In this document: positions 54-22,056 of the stretch, one piece after another
Numbering within the stretch: position 1 is the stretch's first letter
How the letters are laid out: every line of letters starts with the position of its first letter
Assembly (NCBI GenBank): GCA_021158845.1
Contig: JAGGSY010000086.1
Location: forward strand, 1 to 30,004
DNA length: 30,004 bases
Reading direction: 5' to 3'
DNA from: Caldisericia bacterium
GTDB taxonomy: Bacteria > Caldisericota > Caldisericia > B22-G15
Translations under genes and position numbers: made by a program
The notes under the pieces: model-generated
Told to the model about the DNA's origin: nothing
Seen by the model: the letters and a program-made list of their open reading frames with translations, nothing else
Database searches by the model: none

Positions 54-2441
54 TTAAGCCTCTTTTTTCTTTGTTGGAGCCATGAAGAAGTCATCAACCT
101 CCTTCTTTCCGTGTAGAAGAGCAAGAGCGATCTTTTCTGCTGTAATTGGCATTGCTTTTACCCTTACTCCAACAGCATCTTCAACTGCATTGGCTATTGC
201 TGGAGCAACGGGAATCATAACATGCTCTGCCATACCTCTTGCACCAAATGGTCCATCGTGTTGAGGAACTTCTACAAATATTGGTATAAATTCATCCGGT
301 ATATCAAGAGATGTTGGAATCTTGTAGTCTGTGAAGTTTGGATTGAGGATCTTTCCATTTTCATCAATCCTCATGTCTTCATAGAGAGCTGTTGCAATTC
401 CCTGAACAGCACCACCTATAAGCTGCCCTTTTAGAGTTTCAGGGTTGAGAGCCTTTCCAACATCTATTGCCTCTGCAAGTTTAAGAATGTGAACTCTTCC
501 AGTCTCTTTATCAATCTCAAGAACAACTCCTCCAGCTCCCACTGTGTAGTGAACATTTGGATGTCCACCCTGGCTTGTCTCTGGATCCTGAAGCGCAGAT
601 GCAAATTCAACCATGATTGATCCACTTCCAACAATCGCCTGACCTCTGTATGTTCCATCCTCCATCATAATTCCATTAATCACAAAATCTTTGAGTGGGA
701 GTTCAAAGTCTGGGTCTGTTGTACATTTAACCTTCTCATCTTCAAGATAGAGATGGTCCTTTTCATAGTTAAGTGCTCTATGAACAACATCAAATATCTT
801 CTCTCTTGCATCAAGGGCAGCTCTCTTTACAGCATTTCCAAGTAACCATGTAGAGTGAGAAGCAACAGTCTGCCAGTGGTATGGGTTTCTATCTGTATCT
901 GGAAGTTCCACTCTAATCTTCTCTGGTGGTACAGATAGAATTTCAGCTGCAATCTGAGCCATTACAGTGTACATTCCCTGTCCTATTTCCATTCCTGAGA
1001 CAAGTATATTTATACTTCCATCTTCGTTGAACTTAAGAAATGCAGAACAGGTAACATTTGGAGGCATTGCTGGTGCCTTCCATAATGCTGCTATTCCTTT
1101 TCCTATTGCTTTCTTTGGATCTTTACTCTCCTCTTTCTCCTCAAGTTTTATTGCATCTGCAACCTTATCAATACATTCAATAAGACCATTTTCATTCATT
1201 GGAGCACCGTAGGCGAGTGGATCTCCTTCCTTTATTCCGTTTATTTTTCTAAACTCTCTTGGGCTCATTCCAAGTGCTTTTGCAATTCTTGTCATGTGGG
1301 ACTCAATAGAGAACATTATCTCTGAATACCCAAATCCTCTGTACGGTCCTGCTGCTGGAAAGTTTGTGTATATGCAAAGTCCATCCATCTTTATATTAGG
1401 AATATTATAAGGTCCTGTTGCTGATAGAGTGGCAGCATTTACAACATTTGCTCCATACTCTACATATGGACCAGCATCCCAATAGTCTGTACGTTCGAGG
1501 GCAGTTATCCTTCCATCCTTCTTTACACCTACTTTTAATTTAGTTATAACTTGCTGCCTCATATAGGTGTTGTAGAATTCCTGATCTCTCCTCCACCTTA
1601 CCTTCACAGGATGCCCCTTTACAGCTGTTGCTAAAGCTGCAGCAATTATCTCCATGGTTACTCCAGCTTTTCCTCCAAATCCTCCACCAACATATGGGAC
1701 AATTTCTCTTATATTCTGTTCTGTAAAACCAAGCGGTCTGAGCGCTTCAGCGATTAGGTGTCTCTGTGTATGAGGGGATTGAGAGGAAGCCCAGATGGTA
1801 AGCCTTCCATTGTAGTCAACAAAACCTACTGCAATATGTGTTTCCATACAGCAGTGTGCATATCTTGGAATCCTGTATGTATCTTCAAGTATAAAATCTG
1901 CTTCAGCAAATCCTTTCTCAACATCGCCCTTTCTCACCTTTCTCCAGTGTGCGATATTTGTCCCACCATGGGGGTAATACCATGGAACATGGGGGTAGGA
2001 AGCTAACTCTGGATGAATTATTGGCGCATCTTCCTTTATTGCTTCAAGGGGATCAAAAACTGCTGGAAGCGGTTCATACTCAACCTTTACAAGTTTTGCA
2101 GCCTTTTTCGCAGTTTTTGGATCTCTTGCAATAACTGCTGCGACCTGCTCTCCTATAAATCTTACCCTATCCTGAGCAAAGATATATCTATCCTTCATAT
2201 ATAGACCAAACTTGTAGGGAAAGTCTTTTCCAGTCACTACCTTTACAACTCCTGGAACCTTTTCTGCTTCAGATGTATCAATGGAGAGAATCTTTGCATG
2301 GGCATAAGGACTTTCAACTATCTCTGCATAGAGAAGATTTGGACCAAAGTTTATATCATCAACATACTTTGCAGCACCAGTAACTTTATCCTTTTCATCT
2401 ATTCTATTTATTGGCTTTCCAATGAATTTGTATTCACTCAT
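54..2441 (-). CDS. Xanthine dehydrogenase family molybdopterin-binding (large) subunit
   Basis: 795 aa. N-terminal RIDEKDKVTGAAKYVDD hammerhead start, Moco-loop motifs GGGFGGK, YRGFG, EIGQG, and C-terminal GPFGARGMAE with the catalytic Glu position. SD GGAGGAG upstream. Confidence 0.95.
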   Translation of the reverse strand: MSEYKFIGKPINRIDEKDKVTGAAKYVDDINFGPNLLYAEIVESPYAHAKILSIDTSEAEKVPGVVKVVTGKDFPYKFGLYMKDRYIFAQDRVRFIGEQVAAVIARDPKTAKKAAKLVKVEYEPLPAVFDPLEAIKEDAPIIHPELASYPHVPWYYPHGGTNIAHWRKVRKGDVEKGFAEADFILEDTYRIPRYAHCCMETHIAVGFVDYNGRLTIWASSQSPHTQRHLIAEALRPLGFTEQNIREIVPYVGGGFGGKAGVTMEIIAAALATAVKGHPVKVRWRRDQEFYNTYMRQQVITKLKVGVKKDGRITALERTDYWDAGPYVEYGANVVNAATLSATGPYNIPNIKMDGLCIYTNFPAAGPYRGFGYSEIMFSIESHMTRIAKALGMSPREFRKINGIKEGDPLAYGAPMNENGLIECIDKVADAIKLEEKEESKDPKKAIGKGIAALWKAPAMPPNVTCSAFLKFNEDGSINILVSGMEIGQGMYTVMAQIAAEILSVPPEKIRVELPDTDRNPYHWQTVASHSTWLLGNAVKRAALDAREKIFDVVHRALNYEKDHLYLEDEKVKCTTDPDFELPLKDFVINGIMMEDGTYRGQAIVGSGSIMVEFASALQDPETSQGGHPNVHYTVGAGGVVLEIDKETGRVHILKLAEAIDVGKALNPETLKGQLIGGAVQGIATALYEDMRIDENGKILNPNFTDYKIPTSLDIPDEFIPIFVEVPQHDGPFGARGMAEHVMIPVAPAIANAVEDAVGVRVKAMPITAEKIALALLHGKKEVDDFFMAPTKKKEA

Positions 2442-2452
2442 CTTGCTCCTCC

Positions 2453-2917
2453 TTAATATTTCTTTGAGGCGTCAAGAATTGCCTCAATTATAGAAACATA
2501 CCCTGTACAACGGCAAAGGTTCCCACTTATAGCTTCTTTTACCTCTTCTTCTGTTGGATGAGGATTCTTCTTTAGGAGTTCTGTGGCAGTCATTATCATT
2601 CCAGGAGCACAGAAACCACACTGGAATGAGTTATGCTCAATAAAGGATTCCTGAAGTGGGGTAAGCTTATCCTTTGAAAGACCTTCAAGGGTAGTTATCT
2701 CATGACCATCCACCTCTACTGCAAGAATAAGGCAACTTCTTACACTCTTTCCATCGAGAAGAACTGTACATGTTCCACAGTCTCCTCTCCCACACCCATA
2801 CTTTGGAGCAGTTATTCCAAGTTTTGTCCTTAAAACTTCAAGAAGGATATCGTTAGGTTCAACTTCAATGGTTCTCTTTTCTCCATTTAAGATAAAAGTT
2901 ATGGTTTTCTTTTCCAT
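2453..2917 (-). CDS. XDH family (2Fe-2S)-binding small subunit (CoxS/XdhC-like)
   Basis: CGRGDCGTC...SC and QCGFCAPG...NLCRCTGY cluster motifs. Start moved from 2965 to ATG at 2917 (MEKKTITF), which has SD GGAGGA and removes the overlap with the FAD subunit. Confidence 0.95.
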   Translation of the reverse strand: MEKKTITFILNGEKRTIEVEPNDILLEVLRTKLGITAPKYGCGRGDCGTCTVLLDGKSVRSCLILAVEVDGHEITTLEGLSKDKLTPLQESFIEHNSFQCGFCAPGMIMTATELLKKNPHPTEEEVKEAISGNLCRCTGYVSIIEAILDASKKY

Positions 2918-2927
2918 TTTTATCCTC

Positions 2928-3818
2928 CTATATGAGCCTTGTCCCATAATCGGGACCCTTTCCATTCAATCTTTCAACTGCTGCTTTAAGAGCTCTATCA
3001 AGCATAACCTTTGCCATATGCATTCTGTACTCTTTTGTTGCTCTTATATCTGTAATGGGGGAGATCTCCTCTTCTACAAGTTTCTTAGCCTCTTCAATCA
3101 AGGAATCGGAAAGTTCTTTGCCGTTGAGAAGAGATTCAATCTTCTTTGCCCTTGTTGGTTTTGGACCTACTGCACAGAAGGCAACTCTGTATTCATTTCC
3201 AGATAATACAAGAACACCTACTCCAACCTGAGCAAGGTCTTCTCCATTGTATCTTCCAAGTTTTACATAACATCCTGCATGTTTTTTCTGTGGGAGAGGT
3301 ATCTCAATGTATTCTACAAGTTCTCCCTCTTTAAGTGCTGTCTTTCTCGGTCCAAGGAACCACTCTTCAATAGGAATTCTTCTTTCTCCATCTTTACCCT
3401 TTACCACAACAGTTGCCTCATACAGAAGAAGAGCAGGTCCAGAATCAAGGGATGGAACTGCAGAACATATATTTCCAACCATTGTTGCCCTGTTTCTTAT
3501 TCCCATGGATGCAACACTTTTTGCACTTTCCCATAAAAGTGGAAACTTCTCCTTTACAGTTTCATCATCAATTATTTCGTTGAAAGTAGTAAGGGATCCC
3601 ACTATCAATTTGTTATCTTTAAATTCCAACTTCTTTAACTCCTTAAGACCTTTAATGTCAATTACTGCATCTGGAGTTTCAAAACCATCTTTAATTCTTA
3701 CAACAAGATCAGTTCCACCAGAAAGAATCCTTGCTTTAGCACCATACTTATTTAAAAGTTTAATGGCTTCATCAATTGATGAAGGTTTAAAATACTCAAA
3801 CTCATGAGCTATAATCAT
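2928..3818 (-). CDS. XDH family FAD-binding medium subunit (CoxM/XdhB-like)
   Basis: FEYFKPSSIDEAI, LSGGTDL, IRNRATMVGNI, DSGPAL, PITDIRATKEYR motifs; 296 aa. Confidence 0.95.
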   Translation of the reverse strand: MIIAHEFEYFKPSSIDEAIKLLNKYGAKARILSGGTDLVVRIKDGFETPDAVIDIKGLKELKKLEFKDNKLIVGSLTTFNEIIDDETVKEKFPLLWESAKSVASMGIRNRATMVGNICSAVPSLDSGPALLLYEATVVVKGKDGERRIPIEEWFLGPRKTALKEGELVEYIEIPLPQKKHAGCYVKLGRYNGEDLAQVGVGVLVLSGNEYRVAFCAVGPKPTRAKKIESLLNGKELSDSLIEEAKKLVEEEISPITDIRATKEYRMHMAKVMLDRALKAAVERLNGKGPDYGTRLI

Positions 3819-7803: not shown

Positions 7804-7825
7804 GTAAAATTGGTGTCCGATTCGC

Positions 7826-7854
7826 TTTATATAAAAGAGGTTTTTTGGTATATT
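7826..7854 (+). promoter_or_regulatory. Extended -10 promoter for the DUF4388-mglB-mglA operon (probably leaderless)
   Basis: TG-G-TATATT at 7846-7854, weak -35 TTTATA at 7826-7831 (17-nt spacer). ATG at 7861 is 6 nt past the -10, with no SD. Confidence 0.55.
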
Positions 7855-7860
7855 TTTAGT

Positions 7861-8391
7861 ATGAAATTAAAGGGTGAATTGGGAATAATAGAGGTATCCT
7901 CTTTAATACAAACAATAAATCAATTAAGAAAGACTGGAAAACTTGAGATTCTTCTCCCCAATGGAGATAAAGGTGAAATTTTTTTTGACAATGGAGAGAT
8001 AATTCATGCACATTCGCCTGATAATTTTGGTCTTGAAGCCCTTGCAGAAATTTTACTATTCAAGGAAGGAGAGTTTAATTTTAAAGAGAATATAGTTCTT
8101 CCAGCACCTTCCATTAGAATGGATACAGATAGAGCGATAATTGAAGCTATGAGCATGGTTGATGAAACCCAAAGCATTAAGGATATTCTTTCGAAGGTAA
8201 TAGAAATTAAATTTCAAAGTGATGATTCTAAAGTATCTCTTAACAAAGAAGAATTAGTTATATTGATGAAAAGCGATGATAAGAAGACCTTAGGTGAAAT
8301 ATTGTCTGAAACTGGAATGGATAAAGTTAAATTTTTAAAGATAATTGACCAACTATTAAAAAAGGGTATAATAACTTTAAGAAAGGAGTAG
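7861..8391 (+). CDS. DUF4388 (PatA-N-like) domain protein with a C-terminal winged-helix-like region
   Basis: LKGELGIIEVSSLIQ...RKTGKLEI...GEIFFDNGEIIHA...EGEFNF pattern of DUF4388. Start moved from GTG 7810 region to ATG 7861. Confidence 0.8.
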   Translation: MKLKGELGIIEVSSLIQTINQLRKTGKLEILLPNGDKGEIFFDNGEIIHAHSPDNFGLEALAEILLFKEGEFNFKENIVLPAPSIRMDTDRAIIEAMSMVDETQSIKDILSKVIEIKFQSDDSKVSLNKEELVILMKSDDKKTLGEILSETGMDKVKFLKIIDQLLKKGIITLRKE

Positions 8392-8394
8392 AAA

Positions 8395-8877
8395 ATGGCT
8401 GAAGGAATGTCCTCTGTTGTTATATCTGATGAGGATCTAAAAAGAATTGATGATTATTTATCTCAAGCCCTTGCCGATTCCCAGGCAAAAAACATTCTTC
8501 TTTCTGATAGATCGGGTCAGCTTATAACAAAACATGGAGGTGTTTCAAGACAGGATGCTCTAAACATATCTGCTCTTGCTGCTGGTCTCTTCTCTGCAAC
8601 AAATGAACTCGCGAAGCTCCTTGGAGAGAAGGAATTTACCGTCACGTTCCATCAAGGCGAAGAAACCAACATCCATATTTCTCTTCTTGTACCACAGGTC
8701 CTTCTTGTAATTGTATTTGACAATAGAGCGCCAGTGGGAGCAATTAGATTTTGGGCAAAGAAGATAGGAGCAGAGATTATTCCCTATCTCAAAAATATTT
8801 CTGAGAAGCCACCTGAATCTATCAAGAAGGAAGAAATGGAGTCAGAAGTGGAGAAGAAACTGGACTCTCTCTTCTAA
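8395..8877 (+). CDS. mglB: Roadblock/LC7 domain protein, MglB-like GAP
   Basis: LLSDRSGQLI, SALAAGLFSATNELAKLLGEKEF...HQGEETNIH, VIVFDNRAPVGAIR, C-terminal acidic helix ending LDSLF; adjacent to mglA. Confidence 0.9.
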   Translation: MAEGMSSVVISDEDLKRIDDYLSQALADSQAKNILLSDRSGQLITKHGGVSRQDALNISALAAGLFSATNELAKLLGEKEFTVTFHQGEETNIHISLLVPQVLLVIVFDNRAPVGAIRFWAKKIGAEIIPYLKNISEKPPESIKKEEMESEVEKKLDSLF

Positions 8878-8883
8878 TAGAAT

Positions 8884-9468
8884 ATGGCGCTGATAAATTA
8901 TTCTTTAAAAGAGATTACATTTAAAATAGTCTATTATGGCCCTGCTATGAGCGGAAAAACTACCAATTTGAGGTACATTTACGATCATCTTCCCGAGAAG
9001 CTTAAAGGAAAATTCACCTCTATTGCTACAAAGGATGAGAGAACACTCTTCTTTGATTTTCTTCCCCTTGATTTAGGAAAGATAAAGGGTTTTACCATAA
9101 AACTTTCTTTGTATACTGTTCCAGGGCAGGCAATATATACCCTCACAAGAAAAACAATCCTTAAAGCAACTGATGGAATAATATTTGTAGCTGATTCTCA
9201 GAGACATGTGAGAGAAAAAAATATAGAGAGTTTTAAAGATATGGCAGAGAATCTGAAGGAATTTGGTCTTTCCGTTGAGAAGATTCCAATAGTTCTTCAA
9301 TACAACAAGAGAGATTTAAAGGATACTTTAAGTGTGGAAGAGTTAAATGATGATTTAAATGAAGGTGGAACACTCTATCCATACTTTGAATCTATAGCCA
9401 TTGAGGGGAAGGGAGTGATGGAGTGTCTGAAGGCTATCTCAAAATTGGTGATAAGGAAAGTCTCCTGA
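8884..9468 (+). CDS. mglA: MglA small Ras-like GTPase
   Basis: INYSLKEITFKIVYYGPAMSGKTTNL, ERTLFFDFLP, LYTVPGQ, DGIIFVADS, QYNKRD. Confidence 0.95.
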   Translation: MALINYSLKEITFKIVYYGPAMSGKTTNLRYIYDHLPEKLKGKFTSIATKDERTLFFDFLPLDLGKIKGFTIKLSLYTVPGQAIYTLTRKTILKATDGIIFVADSQRHVREKNIESFKDMAENLKEFGLSVEKIPIVLQYNKRDLKDTLSVEELNDDLNEGGTLYPYFESIAIEGKGVMECLKAISKLVIRKVS

Positions 9469-10755
9469 AGAGATAAATTCTTTTAATTTCTTAATTCCTC
9501 TTTCAAACATTCTCTTTCTCCTCTCCCTTTTTGGAAGTTTTTCATTGATGGGTGGTAAAAGACCAAAATGAGCATTTGTTGGCTGAAACTCATTTTCTTT
9601 AGAAGTTATGTATTTTATTAGAGCTCCTATCATTGTCTCTTCGGGAAAAACGATACTTCCCTTACCATGAAGTTTGTTAAAGATATTTAATGATGCCACA
9701 AGGCCTGTGGCTATGTTTTCTGTGTATCCCTCAGAACCTATGATCTGCCCGGCAAAGAAAACCCCATCCTCTTTTTTCAACTCAAGATTAACTTTTAGTA
9801 GTTTTGGTGAGTTTATGAAGGTGTTTCTATGCATGGAACCATATGTGAGAAACTCTGCATTCCTTAAAGCTGGAATAAGTCTGAATACCCTTTTCTGTTC
9901 GCCATACTTAAGTGATGTTTGAAATCCAACGAGGCTAAAGAATGTTTTTTTCCTATTTTCAGGTCTTAACTGAACAACTGCAAAGGGTCTTTTCCCTGTT
10001 TTTGGGTCTATCAAACCGGTAGGCCTTAGGGGACCAAATCTAAGAGTATCCTTACCTCTCCTTGCTATCTCTTCAATTGGGAGGCATGCTTCAAAAAATT
10101 TACCCTTCTCAAAATCTCTTACCTCAGTTTGTTCTGCATTTACAAGCTCTCTCCAGAAAATTTCATACTCACTTTCATTTAAGGGACAATTCAGATAATC
10201 TTTCTCATCTGAGTATCTTCCACCCCAGAATGCCTTTGAATAGTCTATGGTTGATCCATCCACTATGGGAGCGATGGCATCATAGAAGTATAAAAAATCC
10301 TCTCCCAAAAAATTTTTTAAATAGAGAGAAAAGCTATCCGATGTTAAAGGTCCTGTGGCAATAAGAACTGGTCTTTCATTTGGCAACTCTTTCATCTCTT
10401 CTCTGACAATCTCAATGTTCTCCATAGATGAAAGCACAGATGTTATACGCTTAGAAAATCTTTCCCTGTCAACTATTAGAGATTTTTTAGATGATATACT
10501 CACCTCATAGGCAGTTTTTATAAGCAGAGAGTTTAATAACTTCAGTTCCTCTTTTATCATTCCTCTGCCCCTTGTTACATCTGTTGAACCAAAGGAGTTT
10601 GAGCAGACTATCTCAGAAAGGTAGCCTGTTTTGTGAGCAGGTGTAAATTTTTTAGGTCTCATCTCAAAGAGAGTTACTTTGATTCCTCTTATTGCGAGTT
10701 GGAAGGTAGCTTCACTTCCTGCAAGCCCCCCACCTATTACAACAACACTCTTCAT
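9439..10755 (-). CDS. trmFO: Folate/FAD-dependent tRNA (uracil-5-)-methyltransferase TrmFO
   Basis: VIGGGLAGSEA, FEMRP, EIVCSNSFGS, ATGPLTS, FYDAIAP, YLNCP, FEACLPIE, GPLRPTGL, VVQLR, GSMHRNTF, FAGQ. Confidence 0.97.
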   Translation of the reverse strand: MKSVVVIGGGLAGSEATFQLAIRGIKVTLFEMRPKKFTPAHKTGYLSEIVCSNSFGSTDVTRGRGMIKEELKLLNSLLIKTAYEVSISSKKSLIVDRERFSKRITSVLSSMENIEIVREEMKELPNERPVLIATGPLTSDSFSLYLKNFLGEDFLYFYDAIAPIVDGSTIDYSKAFWGGRYSDEKDYLNCPLNESEYEIFWRELVNAEQTEVRDFEKGKFFEACLPIEEIARRGKDTLRFGPLRPTGLIDPKTGKRPFAVVQLRPENRKKTFFSLVGFQTSLKYGEQKRVFRLIPALRNAEFLTYGSMHRNTFINSPKLLKVNLELKKEDGVFFAGQIIGSEGYTENIATGLVASLNIFNKLHGKGSIVFPEETMIGALIKYITSKENEFQPTNAHFGLLPPINEKLPKRERRKRMFERGIKKLKEFISSGDFPYHQF

Positions 10756-11597
10756 TTCTTATGTTCTGTAATTCTACCAAGGAGAATATCAAGTGCGTGG
10801 GGCAGGATGGGAATAATAACATCCATGCACTCTTCTACCGCTTTCTCTGAACCAGGAAGATTAATTACAATCATATCTCCTCTTATCCCAGAAATTCCTC
10901 TGGATAGATATGCCATTTTTGTTATCTTTCCTGTTTCATGCCTTATTAACTCTGGAATACCAGGTATCTCTTTTTCTATTGTCTCTCTTGTTGCTTCAGG
11001 GGTTACATCTCTTTTAGAAAAACCTGTTCCTCCTGTTGTTATAAGGAGATTTATGCCACTTTTCTCTGCCTCTATCAAGTTTTCCTTTATGATTTCTTTT
11101 TCGTCAGGTACAATCTTATAGAAAACTACATTAAAACCGTTCTCTGTTAAAATTTTTTCTATTGCCCTTCCCGATCTATCCTCCCTTTCACCCCTTGAAC
11201 CTTTATCACTTATGGTGAGCACACCTGACCATATATCATCGTTATCAATCTCTATGATAACCCTATCACCATCTTTAAGATTTAGTTTCTCCCTTAGTGG
11301 AACATCTGATACTATCTCTAACACATCTTCGTATTTTGTTTTATCAGGAAGAACTATGTGACAATTCATGTTGTTTAGTTTACATGGTGATAAGGATATA
11401 TCGCCAAATCCAGAGAATCCTTTAATGATTTTCCTCTCTTTAAATTTTATATTTTTAACCCTTAGGGGAGTTCTAATGTTTAGAGTTCCATTAAATACAT
11501 CTATTCCTAAAACATCCTTTATCCTTTCTTTATATATCTTAATGTACTTCTCCCCCTCCTTTATTCCACTGGTAACCTTTCCAGTTATTCTCTTCAT
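10752..11597 (-). CDS. Fusion: archaeal-type CTP-dependent riboflavin kinase domain (about aa 1-118) plus MogA/MoaB molybdopterin adenylyltransferase (about aa 121-281)
   Basis: N-part: GKVTSGIKEG...LGIDVFNGTLNI...IVLPDKT...LEIVSDVPLREKLNLKDGDRV. C-part: LTISDKGSRGEREDRSG, VPDE, TTGGTG..RDVTPEA, PGIPE, LSRG, INLPGS. Confidence 0.85.
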   Translation of the reverse strand: MKRITGKVTSGIKEGEKYIKIYKERIKDVLGIDVFNGTLNIRTPLRVKNIKFKERKIIKGFSGFGDISLSPCKLNNMNCHIVLPDKTKYEDVLEIVSDVPLREKLNLKDGDRVIIEIDNDDIWSGVLTISDKGSRGEREDRSGRAIEKILTENGFNVVFYKIVPDEKEIIKENLIEAEKSGINLLITTGGTGFSKRDVTPEATRETIEKEIPGIPELIRHETGKITKMAYLSRGISGIRGDMIVINLPGSEKAVEECMDVIIPILPHALDILLGRITEHKK

Positions 11598-12967
11598 ACC
11601 TCGTCTCTTGAAATGGGATTTTCTATGTTTGTGCCGAAGGGAAGGTTTGGTTTCTTTCCATTTATGGAAATATCCAATTTGTCAATGTTCAGTGCGTCAG
11701 TAAATGTGTAGACAAGCTCCTTTAAAAACAATCTTTCTTTTGTTTTAGAGTCAATGAAGGAGAGGTCTATTTTAATATCTATTTTAAGAGTGTCTCCTTT
11801 TAAGGAATGGGATACAATTTTAGCTGATTTCGGTATAAATGTTTCAAGACCAACTGGAGGGTTCTTCAATCCATTAAATATAGTGTTAACGCCGTCTCCC
11901 TCTTCCTTTGTGAATTTTGTTATAGGTGTTATGAAGTACTTATCCTTAATTTTATATATATAGTAGATGGGATATCCAATCATGCCTTCAGGAGGTGGGT
12001 TTAGATCAAAATACCATCTTGTTAGAGGTTTGCTTGTATCAAAGTTGCCTCCTATGGTATCCTGAACCTCCCCATCTACTAAAAATAGAACCTTATTTAT
12101 ACCCGGAATTTCAGTCATGGATAGAATTATAGAGTACATAAAAGCATTTTCAGAGGCAGATCCAAATCCTGTGTAGGATAAAATATCAGAGGTAAAATCT
12201 AAGGTTAATACATCTCCTTCAATTCTAATATCCTTCAAATTCGCAATCTTTGGTACCGTGGGGATGAGGTAATCTTTGTATATTCCAGATGGGCCGGATT
12301 TTAATTTATCAAAAACTATTCTTGCCCATCTAATTCTATCCTCAGGTTCAGGAATTTCAGTCTCATAAAGTATGGGAAAGGTTGCATTTTTGTCAAAGAA
12401 GTAAATGATTGCCTTTCTGCCCTGGGGAAGAGAAGATGTAAGCATGTTAAGGGGTTCTGATATAGACACAGAATCCCAATAGAAATTGTCAGGTTTGTCA
12501 TTTATTAGAATTTGAACCCTCCTTAATGGTGTATTTGCCACTATACTGTTTACAATGGAGTAGAGTGAAGCTGCTTCACCAGATATTCCAGGAAGTATTC
12601 TATTTTTAATCTCCTTGGAAAAGGAGACAATGGCTATATCTTCTTTGGTTTCAACGCCTATAATCTTCGTATTTGGATCTACAACTCTTGAGAGATTACT
12701 ATTTTTTGGACCTCTTACTATTTCAAGACATATCCTCTTTATCTTTTCCTCTATATGAGAAAATTTTGGAATTGTGTGTCTTTCCCATACAAGTTCTTTA
12801 GAGTCCTCTTCATAAAAGTATATTTTTACTGATTCATTGCCTTTAGAGAAAAGATTAATATTAAATACTCTTAGTGAAACAAGAACCACAATAACAAATA
12901 TAAGCAGGAACACAAAGGCTAAGCGTCTTGAACTATCTTTTTTTCTTTTTATATTTCTCTTTCTCAT
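11594..12967 (-). CDS. Membrane-anchored protein with three GerMN-like domains
   Basis: Basic N-terminus plus one TM helix, then three units of the pattern IYF...(GP)...IP....I....D/A.V.F/L.....E...YSIVxS....I..V..L(I/V)DG. Confidence 0.75.
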   Translation of the reverse strand: MRKRNIKRKKDSSRRLAFVFLLIFVIVVLVSLRVFNINLFSKGNESVKIYFYEEDSKELVWERHTIPKFSHIEEKIKRICLEIVRGPKNSNLSRVVDPNTKIIGVETKEDIAIVSFSKEIKNRILPGISGEAASLYSIVNSIVANTPLRRVQILINDKPDNFYWDSVSISEPLNMLTSSLPQGRKAIIYFFDKNATFPILYETEIPEPEDRIRWARIVFDKLKSGPSGIYKDYLIPTVPKIANLKDIRIEGDVLTLDFTSDILSYTGFGSASENAFMYSIILSMTEIPGINKVLFLVDGEVQDTIGGNFDTSKPLTRWYFDLNPPPEGMIGYPIYYIYKIKDKYFITPITKFTKEEGDGVNTIFNGLKNPPVGLETFIPKSAKIVSHSLKGDTLKIDIKIDLSFIDSKTKERLFLKELVYTFTDALNIDKLDISINGKKPNLPFGTNIENPISRDEV

Positions 12968-12970
12968 CCA

Positions 12971-14140
12971 TTAAATTATAACACCAAAGGATTTAAGAGA
13001 TAGATATATAAGAAATACACCAAGGATAAGGAAGAGAATTGAGGTTGCCAGTTTCACCTTTCCCACATTCTCCCTCATCAATCTTCCGAGTTCTCTGTTG
13101 GACATACCAAAATAGACACCGGTAAATATAAGTATCAAAGGTAGAACAAACATAAGATTGTAGATTACAAGCATTAACAAAGCTTTAACTCTAAGTTCTG
13201 GGATTCCAATTATATAGACTATGGTTGGTAGGTAGGTTTGTCCTGTACACAGGAACTCTATCAGGGAGATTGGAAATGCCACAAGGAAGGCAGTAACTGC
13301 TATTAAAGATGATTTTGGTTGTTTCTTTATAATCTCCTTTGCCCCCTTTTTAAAAAATCTTGGCAATTGAAGGGAAATATCTCCTCCTTTGCCTTTTTTA
13401 ATCTTTATATAATCTATAAAAGAAAAGACAGAGAGAGTTATTACAAGAATTGCAGAGATAAGGTATATTACTTTTGAGATCATTCCAACAAAAGAAAGTT
13501 TAAGTATTACCCTGAATAGACCCAAACCAGATAGAAGGTAAGCAAGGAATACACCGAGTGTAAAAGATATTCCTGTTATTAGAACTTCTCTCCTGCTCCT
13601 TTTTTGGGTAAGAAGAAATGTTATGAAAAATATTAGAACTGCAAAGGCACATGGATTTATTCCATCAATCAACCCTGCCAACATAACCATCAAGGGACCA
13701 AATGTTTCGAAGTATCTTTTGATTCTTTCCTTTCCACTCATACTTGATGATGCTGCCTCAAGTAAAAACTGGGTATCCTCTGGAGAGTAATTTTTTATCT
13801 TTTCCATTAAATTTTCTTTGATTTCTTCTTCTCCTATAAGGGCAGTTTTTCCAATAAAAACTGCTGGAACGACTCCCCTCTCTTTTTCGTCAACTTCATA
13901 TATTTCATCAAGTTTTGCTCTAAGTTCCTGATTCTTTTCCTCTGCTATATTAAACTTTGTTATTTTTATTCTCTTATTTGACAATGCAAGGTGTTCAAGA
14001 TATGGACCTACCCTTCCGCATTCTGGACAACCCTCTATGTAGAAGTAGTAGATAGTTATGTCAGAGTTAAGTGAGAAAATTTTCACTTGAGGAATTAAAA
14101 AAAATAAAAAGAGGAAAGCTATTAGTATATATTTTTTCAT
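12971..14140 (-). CDS. Thioredoxin-domain (CPEC) fused CcdA/DsbD-type transmembrane electron transporter
   Basis: Signal-like N-terminus, FYIEGCPEC, then about 6 TM helices with GINPCAF and EFLCTGQTY cysteines. Confidence 0.82.
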   Translation of the reverse strand: MKKYILIAFLFLFFLIPQVKIFSLNSDITIYYFYIEGCPECGRVGPYLEHLALSNKRIKITKFNIAEEKNQELRAKLDEIYEVDEKERGVVPAVFIGKTALIGEEEIKENLMEKIKNYSPEDTQFLLEAASSSMSGKERIKRYFETFGPLMVMLAGLIDGINPCAFAVLIFFITFLLTQKRSRREVLITGISFTLGVFLAYLLSGLGLFRVILKLSFVGMISKVIYLISAILVITLSVFSFIDYIKIKKGKGGDISLQLPRFFKKGAKEIIKKQPKSSLIAVTAFLVAFPISLIEFLCTGQTYLPTIVYIIGIPELRVKALLMLVIYNLMFVLPLILIFTGVYFGMSNRELGRLMRENVGKVKLATSILFLILGVFLIYLSLKSFGVII

Positions 14141-15156
14141 AGCCCTAAAAATTCCTTTAGTTTCTCCTCTATGTTTTTGAATGTGGGACTCCCATGGAAC
14201 ATAATTGTTCCATCTGAATCTACAAACATAACTCTTGGTGTAAACTCCATTGTAAGTTTTTTTACAAGCTCTCTCTTTGTATCGATTACTATTCTCATAT
14301 AATCTATGTTTTTAGAGTCTTTATACTTTTCAAGGGTTTTATCTTTGGAGGTTACCGATATAAAAAGATAGTTAACTTTCCTCCTTTTTATATATTTTGA
14401 TAGCATCTCATCAAATTCACGTGTGTGCCGTATACAGGAACCACATGTGGCGTTTGTTGCAACTATTATGAGTTTCTTTCCCATTAAATCCCTGCTTTTT
14501 ATTTTATTTCCATCAATGTCTATTGCCTCAAATTCAGGTAGTTTATCACCAATCCTAAGTATTTTATGCTCCTCTTCTTTATTTGAAGTAAGGTTTTTGT
14601 ATGCAGTGACTCCATGATCATCTATGTATGAGAGGGCAGCAACCTCTTTTATTTTATCTCGAATCAACATAGAGACCTCTCCTTCCTCTACTGGGAGAGG
14701 GATGGGTTTTGTAAGAAGGTCCTTATAATCTTTTCCTTCAAAGTTTTTAAAGAATGAATCCCAATCTACATCACTTGATGTTAATATCTCATTCATAGGT
14801 AGAATTTTTAGTATTTTTCCGTTGGAGTCAAATGCAACAAGGAGTTTAACTTCATTGTTCTTATTCTTCAAAGAAAGATGCTTAATTGTAACTACTGCCG
14901 TTTTTCCAAGAAAGGTGTTTTTCTTGTTTACTATGGTATCAAAACTTACGCCAGTATCTGGTCTATCAGGAAAGTTTACTGTCCTTGTTTCATAAATGGA
15001 TACATCTTTCCCAAAAACTAAACTTAAAGCTTTGTCATAGGATAGATTTTTCTTGAAGATTAATGGAATAGTTACAATAAGAATAAAGGCTAAAATGATA
15101 ATTGAAGATACAATGAAATAGGTTTTTACAGGATTTTTTTCTTTTCTCTTTTTCAT
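14137..15156 (-). CDS. Membrane-anchored FMN-binding-like domain plus TlpA/redoxin (CGSC) domain protein
   Basis: One TM; KLLVAFDSNGKILKI...FFKNFEGK resembles RnfG/NqrC-type FMN_bind; C-terminal IGDKLPEFEAIDIDG...TCGSC...FTPRVMFVDSDGTI is TlpA-like. Confidence 0.65.
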   Translation of the reverse strand: MKKRKEKNPVKTYFIVSSIIILAFILIVTIPLIFKKNLSYDKALSLVFGKDVSIYETRTVNFPDRPDTGVSFDTIVNKKNTFLGKTAVVTIKHLSLKNKNNEVKLLVAFDSNGKILKILPMNEILTSSDVDWDSFFKNFEGKDYKDLLTKPIPLPVEEGEVSMLIRDKIKEVAALSYIDDHGVTAYKNLTSNKEEEHKILRIGDKLPEFEAIDIDGNKIKSRDLMGKKLIIVATNATCGSCIRHTREFDEMLSKYIKRRKVNYLFISVTSKDKTLEKYKDSKNIDYMRIVIDTKRELVKKLTMEFTPRVMFVDSDGTIMFHGSPTFKNIEEKLKEFLGL

Positions 15157-15169
15157 CTTTCACCTCCTA

Positions 15170-16333
15170 TCATCCATCAAGAAAAGACACTATCTTTACC
15201 GGTTTACCTTCCTTTATATACACCCTTGGTACAGATCTACTTATCCTTGATACTATCTCATAGTTTATTGTATCAAGTTTCTCTGCTATCTCTGTAGCAG
15301 TGATCTCCTCTTCTCCATCTCTTCCAATAATTGTTACCTCATCTCCAACTTTCAGGTCTGGAATATCAGTTACATCTATCATAAATTTTCCCATACACAC
15401 TCTACCTACAACTCTCACCCGCCTTCCTTTTACAATCACCTCTCCAATGTTTGTTAACGCTCTGGGATAACCGTCTGAATATCCCATGGGGATAGTTGCT
15501 ATAATACTTTCTCTCTCTGTATAGAATTTTCTTCCATAACTTATTGGAGTTCCCTTATCAACTCTCTTTAAAAAAATTATTTTTGCTCTTATACTCATAA
15601 CTGGATGTAGGTTTATCTCTCTAACAAATATTGAAGGTTTCAATCCATAAAGCATTATCCCAATTCTTACCCCGTCAAGAGAAAACTTCGGAAGGTCAAT
15701 TACAGTGGCGGAGTTCCCTATGTGTTTTAATGGTATTTTGATTCCCTCCCTTTCAAGTTCATCAACAACATACATAAATCTTTTAAATTGTTCTTCTGTA
15801 AAGGATTTATCCTCCTCGTCTGCTGTGGAGAAGTGAGAGTAAATTCCCTCTATCTCAATATTTTTAAACTCTGTTAATTTCTTTATAAACTCAATGGAGT
15901 CTTTATAGGGAACTCCCAACCTTCCCATTCCTGTATCTATTTTTACATGCACCTTAATCCTTTCGCCGTATATTTCAAGAAATCTTTGCAATTCCTCTGC
16001 AAATTCAAGAGAGAGGATTGTAGGTGTAAGGGAAAATTCAACTATATAGTTTACCTGCTTTGGAAATACATATCCCATTATAAGTATTGGCTTCTCTACG
16101 CCCTCGCTTCTCAACTCTATTCCTTCCTCAAGATTCCTTACAGCAAGATAGTCTGCTCCAAGATTTTCCAGTTCCTTTGCTATTTCCACAGAGCCATGCC
16201 CATAGGCATTACTTTTTACAACTGCTATAAGTTTTCTATTTCCTATTATTTCTCTTACCTTTTCATAGTTCTTTTTGAGATTATCAAGATTTATCTCAGC
16301 CCAAACAGGTCTTAAGAGAACTCCATTTTTCAT
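15170..16333 (-). CDS. alr: Alanine racemase family PLP enzyme
   Basis: WAEINLD, AVVKSNAYGHG (PLP Lys), HVKIDTGMGRLG, YSHF, VRIGIMLYG, ISYG (catalytic Tyr), GYSDG, TINYE. Confidence 0.93.
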   Translation of the reverse strand: MKNGVLLRPVWAEINLDNLKKNYEKVREIIGNRKLIAVVKSNAYGHGSVEIAKELENLGADYLAVRNLEEGIELRSEGVEKPILIMGYVFPKQVNYIVEFSLTPTILSLEFAEELQRFLEIYGERIKVHVKIDTGMGRLGVPYKDSIEFIKKLTEFKNIEIEGIYSHFSTADEEDKSFTEEQFKRFMYVVDELEREGIKIPLKHIGNSATVIDLPKFSLDGVRIGIMLYGLKPSIFVREINLHPVMSIRAKIIFLKRVDKGTPISYGRKFYTERESIIATIPMGYSDGYPRALTNIGEVIVKGRRVRVVGRVCMGKFMIDVTDIPDLKVGDEVTIIGRDGEEEITATEIAEKLDTINYEIVSRISRSVPRVYIKEGKPVKIVSFLDG

Positions 16334-17343
16334 GGATTTACCACATATGTGTATTCATCAAAGTAGAGGTCTCTCCCCCAATCCACCTCTCCTTTAATCT
16401 TTATTACCTTTTCTCCAACAAGTTCCACTCTGAAGAGATGGGAATTGTACCATAAAGTTTTTGGATTTCCTAATTTGAAGGGATTTTCCTTTATTATAGG
16501 TAGGTCACTTTCCAGTATGTCCCCCTCTCCAAGAGAGTACCATGAGAATTTTCTTACAACATCTGTTATGACGAGGTTCATTTCAAGAAGAGACTTTTCA
16601 ATGGCAAGCCACTTTTTCATATCTGATTCTATGGTTGTTAGTCCAAAGTAGCCAGAACTTCCCACTCCTTTTACTCCCTCAAGAAGTCTTGAGATAAACA
16701 ACTCTATCCCTTTTACCGTCTCAACAGGGTCTGTGAAGAATACATCAAATTTTCCCTTCAATTCCTCTGGTATCTCCCACCTTGCATCGTATCTTATAGC
16801 TTTAAGGTTGCTTAAGCCCTTCTCTTTGCTAATTCTATCTATGAAATTTACAAGCCTTTCATCAACTTCAAGTACCACTATTTCTTCTGGTAGTTTTGAT
16901 AGTGCAAATAGAATCCCCATAAGGTCGTCATCACCGAGTATGAGTATCTTTTTCTTATATATATCCCCCCTCTCTAACATGTAAAGCATTCTCGCAAGGG
17001 CAGTGTCAGAATCAACTACTCCCTGGTCGTATAGAGTTGTAGGTCTTGGTCTTTCCTTTGCAATGTTGTTATACTCATTAAGTAGGTTTCTCCAACGATC
17101 TTTTTCGTCAACTACTCCTCTTCCTTTACATTCACTGCATCTATAGGAAGTGGAAACAATTTCTGGTAAGGGATTTTTTACATAGAATTTCTCATTTCTC
17201 TCTTCTATTATTCCATCCTTTATTAATGTTCCTATGGCATCTATTACCTCTTTTGCAGAATAGTTTGAAAAGGATACTATACTCCAGAAATCTTTTCCTC
17301 CTCTTGAAAGAAATCTTATTATTTCTTCTTTCACTCTCTCCAT
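16330..17343 (-). CDS. bpsA: Branched-chain polyamine synthase (N4-bis(aminopropyl)spermidine synthase)
   Basis: CSECKGRG, YDQG, RGDI, ILGDDDL, VLEVDERL, FDVFFTDPVET..G...F.SR, GYFG, WYNS; 337 aa. Confidence 0.85.
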   Translation of the reverse strand: MERVKEEIIRFLSRGGKDFWSIVSFSNYSAKEVIDAIGTLIKDGIIEERNEKFYVKNPLPEIVSTSYRCSECKGRGVVDEKDRWRNLLNEYNNIAKERPRPTTLYDQGVVDSDTALARMLYMLERGDIYKKKILILGDDDLMGILFALSKLPEEIVVLEVDERLVNFIDRISKEKGLSNLKAIRYDARWEIPEELKGKFDVFFTDPVETVKGIELFISRLLEGVKGVGSSGYFGLTTIESDMKKWLAIEKSLLEMNLVITDVVRKFSWYSLGEGDILESDLPIIKENPFKLGNPKTLWYNSHLFRVELVGEKVIKIKGEVDWGRDLYFDEYTYVVNP

Positions 17344-17375
17344 TTATTCCTCCTTTTTATATCTTTACAGGAAAA

Positions 17376-17384
17376 ATTATAACA
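17376..17384 (-). promoter_or_regulatory. Extended -10 promoter (TGTTATAAT) for the bpsA operon
   Basis: Consensus TG-n-TATAAT about 33 nt upstream of the bpsA ATG; leader carries SD AAGGAGG. Confidence 0.6.
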
Positions 17385-17392
17385 TAAGGTTA

Positions 17393-18280
17393 TTATAGAA
17401 GTATATTGCTAAGCAATGTTAATGTTAAAGGGGAGAGTAATGTTGTTAAGGTAACCCCTTTGGTAAGTAGTTTCTTATCAAGCCCTATCTCTGCTCCAAA
17501 GATGGTTGATGCCATCATTGTTGGCATCATTCCCTGAAGAAGGGATGGTTTAAGTATAAAGGGTTCCAATCTTAGAACAGAGGATATGAGGAGTATTATA
17601 AAAGGGAAAATCAAAAGTTTAAATACACTCACAGGTAAAAGATACTTTATCTCCTTTGGTTTAATGTTGAGTTCAAGGTTTATGCCAAGGTAAAGCATTA
17701 CAAGAGGACTTATAGTATATTTTAGAAGGATGAGGGGCTCCATGATTAAACTCGGTATTGTAAAATTCCTCAAAATTAATCCTATTATAAAGGCAAAAAA
17801 TGGTGGTGATATAAAGAATTTTTTAATTCCCCCTCTATCTCCTCCTCCAATGTGGGCAAGTACGGGAAGGAGAAATATTAGAAAGAAGTAGAAGTTTATT
17901 TGATCAAAGAGTATTCCATAAGGCAAGGAAGTGTTTCCTAAAACATGTTCTATGAGAGGATAACCCAGAAAAGCAGTATTACCCATAACTCCAGAGAGTA
18001 TAATTGATGCTCTCATTTTTTTATCTTTTGTTAAAAGGAGTCCTGTAATAAATAAAAGGAAAAACTGAACTATCATAGCCAGAGGAACCATGATAAAAAG
18101 TAGAAAAAATTTCCCTTCAAATTTTGATGAGGTTAGAGAGACAAATATGAGAGCTGGCAAAGATATGTTGAATATGATTTTCTTGAGAAGCTCTCCATCC
18201 TTTTCAGTAAAAAACTTAATCCGCTTTAGAATAAATCCGAGCAGTATTATTATTAAAAAGGATACTATTTTATTTATCAT
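17393..18280 (-). CDS. AEC (auxin efflux carrier) family transporter
   Basis: Highly hydrophobic, FNISLPALIF, GNTAFLGYP, ISPLVMLYLG, MPTM. ATG 18280 preferred over TTG 18286. Confidence 0.9.
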   Translation of the reverse strand: MINKIVSFLIIILLGFILKRIKFFTEKDGELLKKIIFNISLPALIFVSLTSSKFEGKFFLLFIMVPLAMIVQFFLLFITGLLLTKDKKMRASIILSGVMGNTAFLGYPLIEHVLGNTSLPYGILFDQINFYFFLIFLLPVLAHIGGGDRGGIKKFFISPPFFAFIIGLILRNFTIPSLIMEPLILLKYTISPLVMLYLGINLELNIKPKEIKYLLPVSVFKLLIFPFIILLISSVLRLEPFILKPSLLQGMMPTMMASTIFGAEIGLDKKLLTKGVTLTTLLSPLTLTLLSNILL

Positions 18281-18785
18281 TATCAAACCGCTCTATCTGT
18301 TTTATAATAAAATCTGCAATCTCCTCTTCTGGGTATGGCCATGCATATATGATCTCTGCTTCTGGATGTAAAATCTTAGAAAATTCAAGTCTCTCTTTTA
18401 TTTCAATTTCACATACTCTATCACCTGGAATGATCATAACTGGAGCCACTATTATCCTTTTACATCCATTTTTCACCGCTCTGTCAATTGCTTCAGTTAT
18501 TGATGGAGAACAATAATCATAAAATCCAAAATAGATTGAAGTTCCTGCATTTCTCATAATATGAGAAATTACATCAAAAAATCCTTCCCAGTACTCATCG
18601 TTTCTGTTGTTTCTCTTCCATTTTCTTAACGATTCATTAAGTTCTTCGAATCTGTCTGACTCCTCTTTGGATAGAATTTCACCACCTATGATTTTCGCCT
18701 TTAGACTAAAATACTCTCCAAGTTCTTTTCTTGGGAAATCTGTAGGAATATCTCCCCTTCCTATGATCACATAACACTTCTTCAT
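18270..18785 (-). CDS. CbiX/SirB chelatase-fold protein (metal-binding His apparently lost)
   Basis: FGFYDYCSPSITEAIDRAVKNGCKRIIVAPVM pattern of CbiX; N-terminal IIGRG where xxHG is expected. Confidence 0.65.
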   Translation of the reverse strand: MKKCYVIIGRGDIPTDFPRKELGEYFSLKAKIIGGEILSKEESDRFEELNESLRKWKRNNRNDEYWEGFFDVISHIMRNAGTSIYFGFYDYCSPSITEAIDRAVKNGCKRIIVAPVMIIPGDRVCEIEIKERLEFSKILHPEAEIIYAWPYPEEEIADFIIKQIERFDNDK

Positions 18786-19180
18786 CCCCCCACCACCTTG
18801 ACAAAGACCTTCCTTGTTCTCGGCCCATCAAATTCAAGAAAGAATATGCCCTGCCATGTTCCGAGAAGGATCTCTCCATCTTCAATGATTATCTCCCTTG
18901 AAGAACCAATTATAGATGACTTTATGTGTGAATCGGCGTTACCTTCAAGGTGGGTATAATCTCCGTGGTGTGGAATAAGTTTTGAGAGTGTTGAAAGAAC
19001 ATCCCTCATAACAGAGGGATCTGCATTCTCATTTATTGTAATTGCGGCAGTGGTGTGTGGAACAAAAACAACACAGATTCCATCTCTCACCCCTGACCCT
19101 CTAACAACACTCCTTACCTCTTCTGTAATATCCATAGCTTCAATCCTTCTTGTCGTTCTTACCGATATAGTTTTTAACAT
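18782..19180 (-). CDS. yjbQ: YjbQ/UPF0047 family protein
   Basis: FVPHTTAAITINENADP, HLEGNADSHIKS, LGTWQGIFFLEFDGPR. Confidence 0.93.
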   Translation of the reverse strand: MLKTISVRTTRRIEAMDITEEVRSVVRGSGVRDGICVVFVPHTTAAITINENADPSVMRDVLSTLSKLIPHHGDYTHLEGNADSHIKSSIIGSSREIIIEDGEILLGTWQGIFFLEFDGPRTRKVFVKVVGG

Positions 19181-20435
19181 TTTCCTCTTCCTCCTTTAAT
19201 ATCTCTATGGCAGCCCTACCAACATCCTCTCTCCAATACCTCCCCAAAAATTTTTTAATCTCCTCAATTATTTCTCTCCTTGTTTTTCTTTCGGCATAAG
19301 GTCTTCCAGCTATCATAGACTCTATAGTGTCAGAAATTGCAATTATTTGAGATTCAACAGGAATCTCCTCCCCTGTTAATCCAAGGGGATAACCTGAACC
19401 ATCAAGCCTTTCATGATGAAATCTTGCCCATAGCGCTATATTTTTGAAGGAATTCACCTGGGATATAATCTTGTAACTCCAGTCTGGATGTTTCTTTATC
19501 TCTTCATACTCATAGGGGGTAAGGGACCCTGCCTTTCTAAGTATTGTCTCGCTTATGGCTATCTTTCCTATATCGTGAAGAAGTGAAGCTATCTTTATTT
19601 TTTTTATTTTTTCATCGGTAAAATTCATCTTCTCTGCTATTTTTTTGGCATAGTATGCAACTCCAATACTATGACCTTTGGTAAATGGATCCTTTGCCTC
19701 AAGTGCTGATACAAATACATTCAGGAACTCATCTGTGAATCTTTCAATATCTCTTCTCTTTGCATACTCTGTGAGGAATGTATGGAGTATATGAACAATC
19801 ATCTCAATCATTGGATAAAATTCTTCTACCTTTTCCTTACTTACAGGTTCCTTAAATTTTATGTATATCTGTGTTTTAGCCCCTATATCCTTTGTTTCCC
19901 ATATCACCCTTGCTATATCAAACTTAACACTAAGTTCAAGATTATCTAATATGGATTTTAGATTTTCACAGTGAAAATCTCTTCCAAAAGAGCCCTCATA
20001 CTTCTCGTTGTTGTATGTAAAACAGATTTTACAACCTTCAAAATTTGCCATTAGAGAAAGTTCTTTGGAAAGCATGGGGAGTAGCTTGTTAATGGAGATG
20101 TTGAGGGTAAATACATCTAAAAGTTCAGGCAATTGTCTCAGTATCGCCATTGTCTTTTTAAGGTTTGTATTTTCACTTTCAACCGTGCATATCATGTTAA
20201 CAATATTCAAGAATTTGTTAACAGTCAATTTATCTATTGGAGAAAATTCATTTTCTCTATTTAGTATAATTTCAGCTTCTCCATCTCTTCTGAGTACTTT
20301 TTTAGCCTCTTCTTTTAAAGATCCAAGCTCAATAAATTTCCCGCATTTATTCAAACTTATGTAGTTCAACCTTAAAAGTTTCTTAATTACATAGAGAAGG
20401 TCTGTTAGTTCAAAGTCCAGAAGATTATCATCCAT
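19140..20435 (-). CDS. HD-GYP domain cyclic-dinucleotide phosphodiesterase with an unassigned N-terminal region
   Basis: EAKDPFTKGHS, LLHDIGK, HP, HHERLDGSGYPLGL, IAISD, RPY. Confidence 0.9.
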   Translation of the reverse strand: MDDNLLDFELTDLLYVIKKLLRLNYISLNKCGKFIELGSLKEEAKKVLRRDGEAEIILNRENEFSPIDKLTVNKFLNIVNMICTVESENTNLKKTMAILRQLPELLDVFTLNISINKLLPMLSKELSLMANFEGCKICFTYNNEKYEGSFGRDFHCENLKSILDNLELSVKFDIARVIWETKDIGAKTQIYIKFKEPVSKEKVEEFYPMIEMIVHILHTFLTEYAKRRDIERFTDEFLNVFVSALEAKDPFTKGHSIGVAYYAKKIAEKMNFTDEKIKKIKIASLLHDIGKIAISETILRKAGSLTPYEYEEIKKHPDWSYKIISQVNSFKNIALWARFHHERLDGSGYPLGLTGEEIPVESQIIAISDTIESMIAGRPYAERKTRREIIEEIKKFLGRYWREDVGRAAIEILKEEEENVKNYIGKNDKKD

Positions 20436-22049: not shown

Positions 22050-22056
22050 GGATATA

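Follow-up and report, generated by a model that had tools for sequence, protein, structure and literature searches.

What does it signify that a bacterial gene joins a riboflavin kinase of archaeal type, end to start, to an enzyme of molybdenum cofactor (Moco) synthesis? The question is raised by a gene of 281 codons in a stretch of 30,004 nucleotides (the window: contig JAGGSY010000086.1 of assembly GCA_021158845.1) from a Caldisericia bacterium that is described as a hydrothermal-vent organism. An earlier note on this DNA had proposed that the fused polypeptide coordinates the supply of flavin mononucleotide (FMN), and of flavin adenine dinucleotide (FAD), with that of Moco. A different explanation is considered quite probable here: that the chain is bifunctional and its two domains independent, with RibK serving as the sole riboflavin kinase of the host, the second domain as a MogA/MoaB-type adenylyltransferase, and the fusion itself being a contingent event. 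The gene and its parts, in window coordinates, are:

10752..11597, minus strand: ribK-mogA fusion gene, 281 codons plus stop, its start and stop both within ATGA overlaps with the neighbouring genes

11247..11576, minus strand: N-terminal RibK domain (residues 8-117; PF01982), a cradle-loop barrel in which GTLN, PxxT, E94 and LRxxxxL are kept and the loop is G-I-K-E-G

11226..11246, minus strand: junction (residues 118-124, D-N-D-D-I-W-S), where the C-terminal tail of RibK passes straight into the N-terminus of MogA

10797..11225, minus strand: C-terminal MogA/MoaB-type domain (residues 125-267; PF00994 / TIGR00177)

The single 281-residue frame described in the earlier note is confirmed and lies on the minus strand, which that note had left unstated. 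Its two domain assignments are upheld by a Pfam scan, with CTP-dep_RFKase (PF01982) at residues 8-117 (E 5.6e-26, 91.3 bits against a cut-off of 25, model positions 1-121) and MoCF_biosynth (PF00994) at residues 125-267 (E 1.6e-34, 119.1 bits against a cut-off of 26.6). By sequence, the N-terminal half matches RbkR of Thermoplasma acidophilum (3cta, E 8e-20), the best match in the PDB, and MJ0056 (E 1e-12). The AlphaFold2 (AF2) model of this domain has a predicted local distance difference test score (pLDDT) of 85-97, and a Foldseek search with it retrieves RbkR (5trd, root-mean-square deviation (rmsd) 2.4 Å) and MJ0056 (2vbv, TM score 0.77, rmsd 2.2 Å). The motifs that define archaeal RibK are GxGEG, GTLN, PxxT and LRxxxxL (bioRxiv 10.1101/2021.04.15.440061). 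In the fusion protein, the triphosphate-binding GTLN is G37-T38-L39-N40; the PxxT of the riboflavin site (P84-D-K-T87), the Mg-binding Glu (E94) and the cytosine loop (L101-R102...L107) align to MJ0056 and RbkR. Among 47 aligned RibKs, G11, G37, T38, N40, P84 and E94 are invariant and L39 is nearly so. An extra MazE/AbrB-like domain at residues 100-122 was considered and rejected, the matches being weak, below their cut-offs and a reflection of the swapped-hairpin/cradle-loop relationship of the last beta-hairpin. An ESM Atlas feature search gave no usable match.

The C-terminal half matches, among PDB sequences, MoaB of T. thermophilus (2is8, E 1e-43), gephyrin-G (1e-39), Cnx1-G and several Mog proteins, and it scores 118.1 bits against TIGR00177 (cut-off 85.35). 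The active-site motifs TxSD, DxSG, GGTGxxxRDxTPEA and NLPGS, read in residues 127-250 of P0001, align to 2is8 and gephyrin-G, and the PGxxE and SRG motifs are likewise present in this half. Nearly all of the motifs first read by eye in the two domains are thus found, with two corrections: the RibK loop reads S-G-I-K-E-G, not G.GEG, and three residues, not two, separate GGTG from RDVTPEA. The C-terminal half is predicted to belong to MogA/MoaB at the level of the domain family only.

The two domains meet without an added linker. The string IEIDNDDIWSGVLTISD, which had been taken for a short linker, is found in the protein exactly as quoted; it is the tail of RibK running into MogA, with nothing inserted. 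In the sister genus (g2; six genomes, G003-G008), the stand-alone RibK ends in ...EVDIENDF, and the fusion reads on as ...EIDNDD-I-WSGVLTISDKG. Residue 122 is Ile in the fusion (Leu in P0004) and appears to occupy the position where the start Met of MogA would be expected.

The physiological place of the RibK half emerges from the flavin genes of the window's own genome (G000; 1.21 Mb, 96% complete). A scan of this genome found no flavokinase domain (PF01687) anywhere, a single PF01982 domain, which is that of the fusion, and one FAD_syn domain. The RibF protein, encoded at the usual truB-ribF position (L001 1246-1965 (-), G000:C18), has 239 aa. In an alignment to full-length Caldisericota RibFs, a 13-residue deletion takes out its GxGxxLGFPTAN phosphate-binding motif and the kinase domain lacks its last ~60 residues, so that the kinase half is a vestige of ~65 aa; the adenylyltransferase motifs HxGH and ISSxxIR are retained. 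The question put earlier, whether the genome's ribF has kept its kinase domain, is answered in the negative. As the genome has no PF01687 domain, a RibF stub and one PF01982 match, RibK is left as its sole candidate for a riboflavin kinase. Lumazine synthase was not found in G000, and for this reason the host is regarded as a riboflavin auxotroph. An FMN riboswitch (RF00050, 109.6 bits; L080 284-424 (+), G000:C69) lies directly upstream of a gene for the S-component of an energy-coupling factor (ECF) transporter (PF12822, 58 bits; L080 478-942 (+)), which is likely a RibU-type riboflavin importer of this auxotroph.

A pathway may be drawn from these parts. Riboflavin would be imported through the ECF transporter under control of the FMN riboswitch and phosphorylated to FMN by the RibK domain, presumably with cytidine triphosphate (CTP), and FMN would be converted to FAD by the truncated RibF, which keeps only the FMN adenylyltransferase domain. 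The C-terminal domain of the fusion would adenylate molybdopterin towards Moco for the genome's four enzymes of the xanthine dehydrogenase (XDH) family. No other PF00994 domain of the genome has the size of a MogA, and in the genus of the host (g1) it is accompanied by MoaA, a MoaC-MOSC fusion of 284 aa (L005/L006, C57; L039, G002:C5), a PF00994 protein of 342 aa, a MocA-like gene and XdhC.

The same division of labour is seen across the phylum. In a comparison set of 93 Caldisericota genomes, grouped in families f1-f7, the flavokinase domain PF01687 occurs in 73 of the 75 genomes of f2-f6 and is missing from all 18 of f1 and f7 (G000, of genus g1 in f1, included), and PF01982 shows the reverse distribution (12/18 in f1 and f7, 0/75 in f2-f6). 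None of the 93 genomes combines RibK with a RibF kinase domain. The RibF frames are 236-248 aa long throughout f1, compared to 304-417 aa in f2-f6. This is a non-orthologous displacement, with an archaeal-type RibK in place of the bacterial RibF kinase domain. As a separate observation, genus g23 of f7 (G087-G090) and genome G092, which are 74-89% complete, have a RibF-type FAD_syn domain and neither a flavokinase nor a PF01982 domain; riboflavin kinase in these genomes may be another enzyme or may have been missed through genome incompleteness.

The displacing kinase appears to have come from the archaea. Among the control genomes, PF01982 matched only the four archaeal ones. In a tree of RibK domains, the RibKs of f1 form one clade (Shimodaira-Hasegawa-like approximate likelihood ratio test (SH-aLRT) 83), within which the fused proteins are monophyletic (99) and the stand-alone RibKs of g2 are their sister (87); the RibKs of f7 form a separate clade elsewhere in the tree. 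As nearest outgroups, the tree has short RibKs that stand alone, either encoded on contigs of archaeal appearance (Trm1, PF04008) or grouped in clusters named Altiarchaeales and Thermoplasmata; their taxonomy is taken from gene context and from the few cluster members that carry a name. With so poorly resolved a backbone, the tree makes an archaeal origin of the RibK half likely without proving it. The archaeal source that had been suggested for the kinase domain is therefore plausible; the kinase did not arrive within the fusion, as the stand-alone gene already existed. In the ancestor of f1, RibK would have taken the place of the RibF kinase domain, as it would have in f7, either separately or earlier. 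Beside this, the stand-alone ribK of one f7 genome (G084) overlaps an upstream gene for a multi-pass membrane protein of 171 aa with a weak 5TM-5TMR_LYT match, and a nearby gene reads by eye as nitroreductase-like (L016 1850-2365 (-), 1480-1863 (-) and 88-717 (-)). The membrane protein is a candidate flavin transporter that would form a transporter-kinase pair with RibK.

The fusion is real and of long standing. Its frame of 281 codons recurs in the congeneric genome G002 (90% identity) and in two NCBI proteins from metagenome-assembled genomes (RLD17100.1 and RLD13267.1, labelled 'hypothetical protein, Caldiserica bacterium'), and a 76%-identical orthologue occurs in two further SRA assemblies with identical synteny (GerM-fusion-TrmFO-MglA). 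Contigs from four studies of hydrothermal vent and marine sediment metagenomes span the junction with no indels or joints. An assembly artefact, which the earlier note had named as grounds for refutation, is thus ruled out, as is a frameshift. All three fusion orthologues have exactly 281 codons, and the fusion is found in several species of one Caldisericota genus (g1; three genomes, G000, G001 and G002). Its absence from G001 carries no information, because contigs C51 and C57 of that genome end on either side of the locus. The ratio of nonsynonymous to synonymous divergence (dN/dS, Nei-Gojobori) lies between 0.05 and 0.13 in the RibK half and between 0.06 and 0.11 in the MogA half, with dS reaching ~1.7; both halves are under purifying selection.

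The MogA half has a history of its own. Its identity is 60-65% to the MogAs of Caldicellulosiruptor and Caldicoprobacter and 43-52% to those of other Caldisericota families. This contrast suggests that the MogA half was acquired laterally, from another source than the RibK half, and it appears to be of thermophilic-Clostridia-like descent. In g1, a mogA of this kind would then have been placed directly after ribK and fused to it end to start. The way in which this may have happened is suggested by the genes around the fusion:

11594..12967, minus strand: upstream gene, GerM/Germane-domain protein of 457 aa; ATGA overlap and translational coupling with the fusion gene; the same upstream neighbour as that of ribK in g2

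9439..10755, minus strand: downstream gene trmFO, GIDA family, 438 aa; ATGA overlap with the fusion stop; not at this position in g2

7810..9468, plus strand: DUF4388-MglB-MglA module, divergent; separates the fusion operon from the XDH operon

54..3818, minus strand: XDH-family molybdo-flavoenzyme with FAD, 2Fe-2S and Moco subunits; separate operon

The fusion gene belongs to a co-directional run (9439-22085 (-)) that encodes an HD-domain protein, YjbQ, CbiX, a transporter, a BpsA-like polyamine synthase, an alanine racemase, a redoxin and a membrane protein and ends in the GerM-domain protein, ribK-mogA and trmFO; these genes are functionally unrelated. Many of the junctions in the run overlap, and the two that were checked in the sequence, those flanking the fusion, are of the ATGA kind. 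If ribK and mogA once met in a similar stop/start overlap, a small lesion there would give the present product, and the fusion probably arose in this way. Fusions to the N-terminus of a MogA/MoaB domain are tolerated elsewhere (MoaC-MoaB, NF002947). A promoter and terminator scan around the fusion operon gave counts equal to the shuffle expectation and was not used.

The next question is whether the fusion was selected because it links the two pathways, for instance by setting the stoichiometry or proximity of FMN/FAD and Moco supply for the maturation of XDH-type enzymes. Some of the gene content fits such a Rosetta-stone coupling. Four XDH-family Moco subunits are encoded in G000, and the three-subunit enzyme that had been noticed near the fusion is confirmed at 54..3818, on the same strand, ~7 kb away and complete with an FAD subunit. 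Maturation genes are also present: a cluster of three genes (L004 976-3369 (+), G000:C13) encodes a PF00994 protein of 342 aa, weakly MoeA-like with a Cys-rich C-terminus, together with a MocA-like cytidylyltransferase (TIGR03310, 146 bits, below the cut-off) and XdhC. This cluster is probably the set for Mo insertion and for maturation of the molybdopterin cytosine dinucleotide (MCD) cofactor of XDH-family enzymes. That the fusion has passed through a dS of ~1.7 free of indels, with constraint on both halves, is likewise in keeping with a selected link.

The comparison with related lineages argues against it. In g2, where five of the six genomes are 99-100% complete, a stand-alone ribK of 120-122 aa lies at the same locus, coupled to the GerM-domain gene and directly followed by a convergent mglA. 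These genomes each have 3-5 XDH-family genes plus MocA-like genes, and no PF00994 domain (neither MogA nor MoeA) and no MoaC were found in them; RibK and XDH-family enzymes thus occur together where MogA does not. In f7, RibK and MogA (155-161 aa) are separate genes at unlinked loci. Beyond Caldisericota, 1.84 billion representative proteins were scanned exhaustively with HMMER, since word-based searches had failed even on the stand-alone RibKs of g2 at 50% identity; the scan gave 841 clusters with a RibK domain, and among the best 150 of these the RibK-MogA architecture is confined to the window's own cluster, with no second lineage. The other architectures in the best 150 are wHTH-RibK (winged helix-turn-helix), PIN-RibK (P0166), RibK-RibL-like (P0252, CTP_transf_like) and a methyltransferase-RibK-glycosyltransferase of 768 aa with two RibK-like stretches (P0144). 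The operon context also argues against coupling: the fusion lies in an operon with unrelated genes of housekeeping type (GerM-domain protein, TrmFO, alanine racemase and redoxin), and the XDH operon, which had been put forward as the client of the fusion, is a separate transcription unit beyond the MglA module. Moreover, FMN is needed by every flavoprotein, not by XDH alone. Coordination of the two supplies through the fusion is therefore not supported and is regarded as unlikely. The comparative evidence suggests instead that the fusion is a lineage-specific accident rather than a functional coupling of two pathways, and its best reading is that of two independent activities carried on one chain, for which co-expression, with no mechanistic coupling, would be the only likely benefit.

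A side observation on g2 concerns its own Moco supply. With XDH-family and MocA-like genes (e.g., loci L007, L011 and L036) and neither MoaC nor PF00994, these bacteria may scavenge Moco or molybdopterin from the environment.

A second way to link the halves is regulatory. RibK could act mainly as a module that senses CTP and FMN and gates MogA, so that adenylylation in Moco synthesis follows flavin or CTP status, by analogy to archaeal RbkR, in which the binding of CTP and FMN tunes an attached DNA-binding domain. The two domains of the fusion must be close together since no linker separates them, and the MocA-like cytidylyltransferase of the genome would draw on CTP as the substrate for the cytosine dinucleotide cofactor. 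Against a sensor stand the catalytic motifs, which are kept as in the stand-alone enzymes, and the lack of any other riboflavin kinase in the genome, which means that the RibK domain must at least be catalytic; the modelled C-terminal domain is poorly defined, and no interface between the domains is seen. A role confined mainly to sensing is accordingly held to be highly improbable. A broader form, in which the fusion is an adaptive cofactor-assembly module that synchronises flavin and cytosine-dinucleotide Moco supply for XDH-type enzymes, either by tethering RibK to a MogA trimer or by using RibK as a CTP/FMN sensor in cis, is given somewhat more credit and is still decidedly unlikely. If correct, it would represent a new form of cross-talk, a direct regulatory link between the flavin and molybdenum cofactor pathways of a kind that has not been described.

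The reading of two independent enzymes on one chain has several observations to contend with. One is the glycine-rich phosphate loop of RibK, which is G11-I-K-E-G15 rather than GxGEG, with Lys for the middle Gly. This position is Lys or Arg in every RibK of f1, the RibKs of f7 have GLGKG, and the N-terminal domain scores 68.8 bits against the ribK_Meth equivalog (NF040694; cut-off 168) and is not filed there. Such a pattern could mark a changed chemistry, with another phosphate donor (e.g., ATP) or another substrate. The remainder of the site speaks for the usual reaction: the LRxxxxL segment for cytosine recognition, GTLN, PxxT and the Mg-binding Glu are conserved, Arg is found at the same loop position in P0142, the nearest archaeal-context relative, and the host clearly needs a riboflavin kinase for its physiology. 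Altered chemistry is thus judged very unlikely. The C-terminal half also falls below its equivalog cut-offs (122.8 bits against 158 for MogA, PRK09417/NF006932; 87.5 against 222.4 for MoaB, TIGR02667), and its model has a pLDDT of 40-80, a low confidence due to a shallow alignment; Foldseek still retrieves MoaB, MogA and Cnx1G with it. The Moco pathway also looks incomplete: no MoaE turned up in the three g1 genomes and no ThiS/MoaD or MoeA_N in G000, which leaves the molybdopterin-synthase step, and with it the substrate supply of the MogA half, unaccounted for. A distant second case of RibK-MogA may exist among the 691 weaker of the 841 RibK clusters. Lastly, the long retention of the fusion is an outcome that selected functional coupling would also be expected to produce, and it leaves some room for such coupling or for a sensor role like that of RbkR.

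Independent activities on a contingently fused chain are nevertheless the preferred account, and the interest of the locus shifts with it from the fusion to the kinase. The family provides a clean case, internal to one phylum, of non-orthologous displacement across the domains of life in which a kinase-dead RibF stub is left behind. The displacement matters for automated annotation because such proteins are deposited as 'hypothetical', and it matters when the metabolism of uncultured bacteria from vents and sediments is reconstructed, as these would otherwise be counted as incapable of FMN synthesis. The locus also calls for caution in Rosetta-stone inference: a conserved and selected fusion looks functional, and g2 and f7 show that its two activities are otherwise unlinked. 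The displacement and this lesson in over-reading are worth more than any presumed mechanism of the fusion.

Set beside known systems, the RibK half is closest to archaeal RibK (MJ0056, EC 2.7.1.161, PF01982; PDB 2vbv and 2p3m), with which it shares the family, the cradle-loop barrel, the GTLN/PxxT/Mg-Glu/LRxxxxL signature and the predicted status of sole riboflavin kinase of its genome. It differs in having a bacterial host, a G-x-K-E-G loop and a C-terminal MogA domain, and in its predicted place upstream of a bacterial RibF-type FMN adenylyltransferase rather than the archaeal RibL. RibK orthologues have been stated to be absent from Bacteria (PMC5397151). RbkR of T. acidophilum (3cta/5trd; PMC5397151) is similar in that a RibK domain is joined to a second functional module. 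By contrast, the partner in RbkR is an N-terminal wHTH DNA-binding domain and that of the fusion is a C-terminal enzyme of cofactor biosynthesis; no HTH family of Pfam or NCBIfam matches the fusion, and the NF010762 match covers only the kinase part of that model (positions 93-220).

The monofunctional RibF-related FAD synthases (NF045965 'RibF_rel' and PRK07143) resemble the RibF of G000, which has sub-threshold matches to both, in keeping adenylyltransferase motifs with no functional kinase domain. In the present case, however, this enzyme is the partner of the fusion and not the fusion itself, and a RibK of archaeal type would provide the kinase that it lacks. Multi-domain proteins that use RibK as a module are also known from the RibK survey, as RibK-CTP_transf_like/RibL-like (P0252) and PIN-RibK (P0166); the RibL-like partner is itself part of flavin metabolism, whereas the cofactor pathway to which MogA belongs is an unrelated one. 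The C-terminal half, in turn, shares a full-length domain match and motifs with MogA/MoaB proteins (E. coli MogA, T. thermophilus MoaB 2is8, gephyrin-G and Cnx1-G). The known N-terminal partners of that domain are those of MoaC-MoaB (NF002947) and Cnx1 E-G; the partner here is a kinase of the flavin pathway, a combination with no other example in the best 150 RibK clusters. No description of a RibK-MogA fusion was found in the literature on bacterial RibK, PF01982/DUF120 and Caldisericota riboflavin metabolism, and NCBI labels the protein 'hypothetical', in agreement with the earlier note, which knew of no such fusion. Both domain families are well known; what is new is the RibK-MogA architecture and the displacement, in bacteria, of the RibF kinase by RibK.

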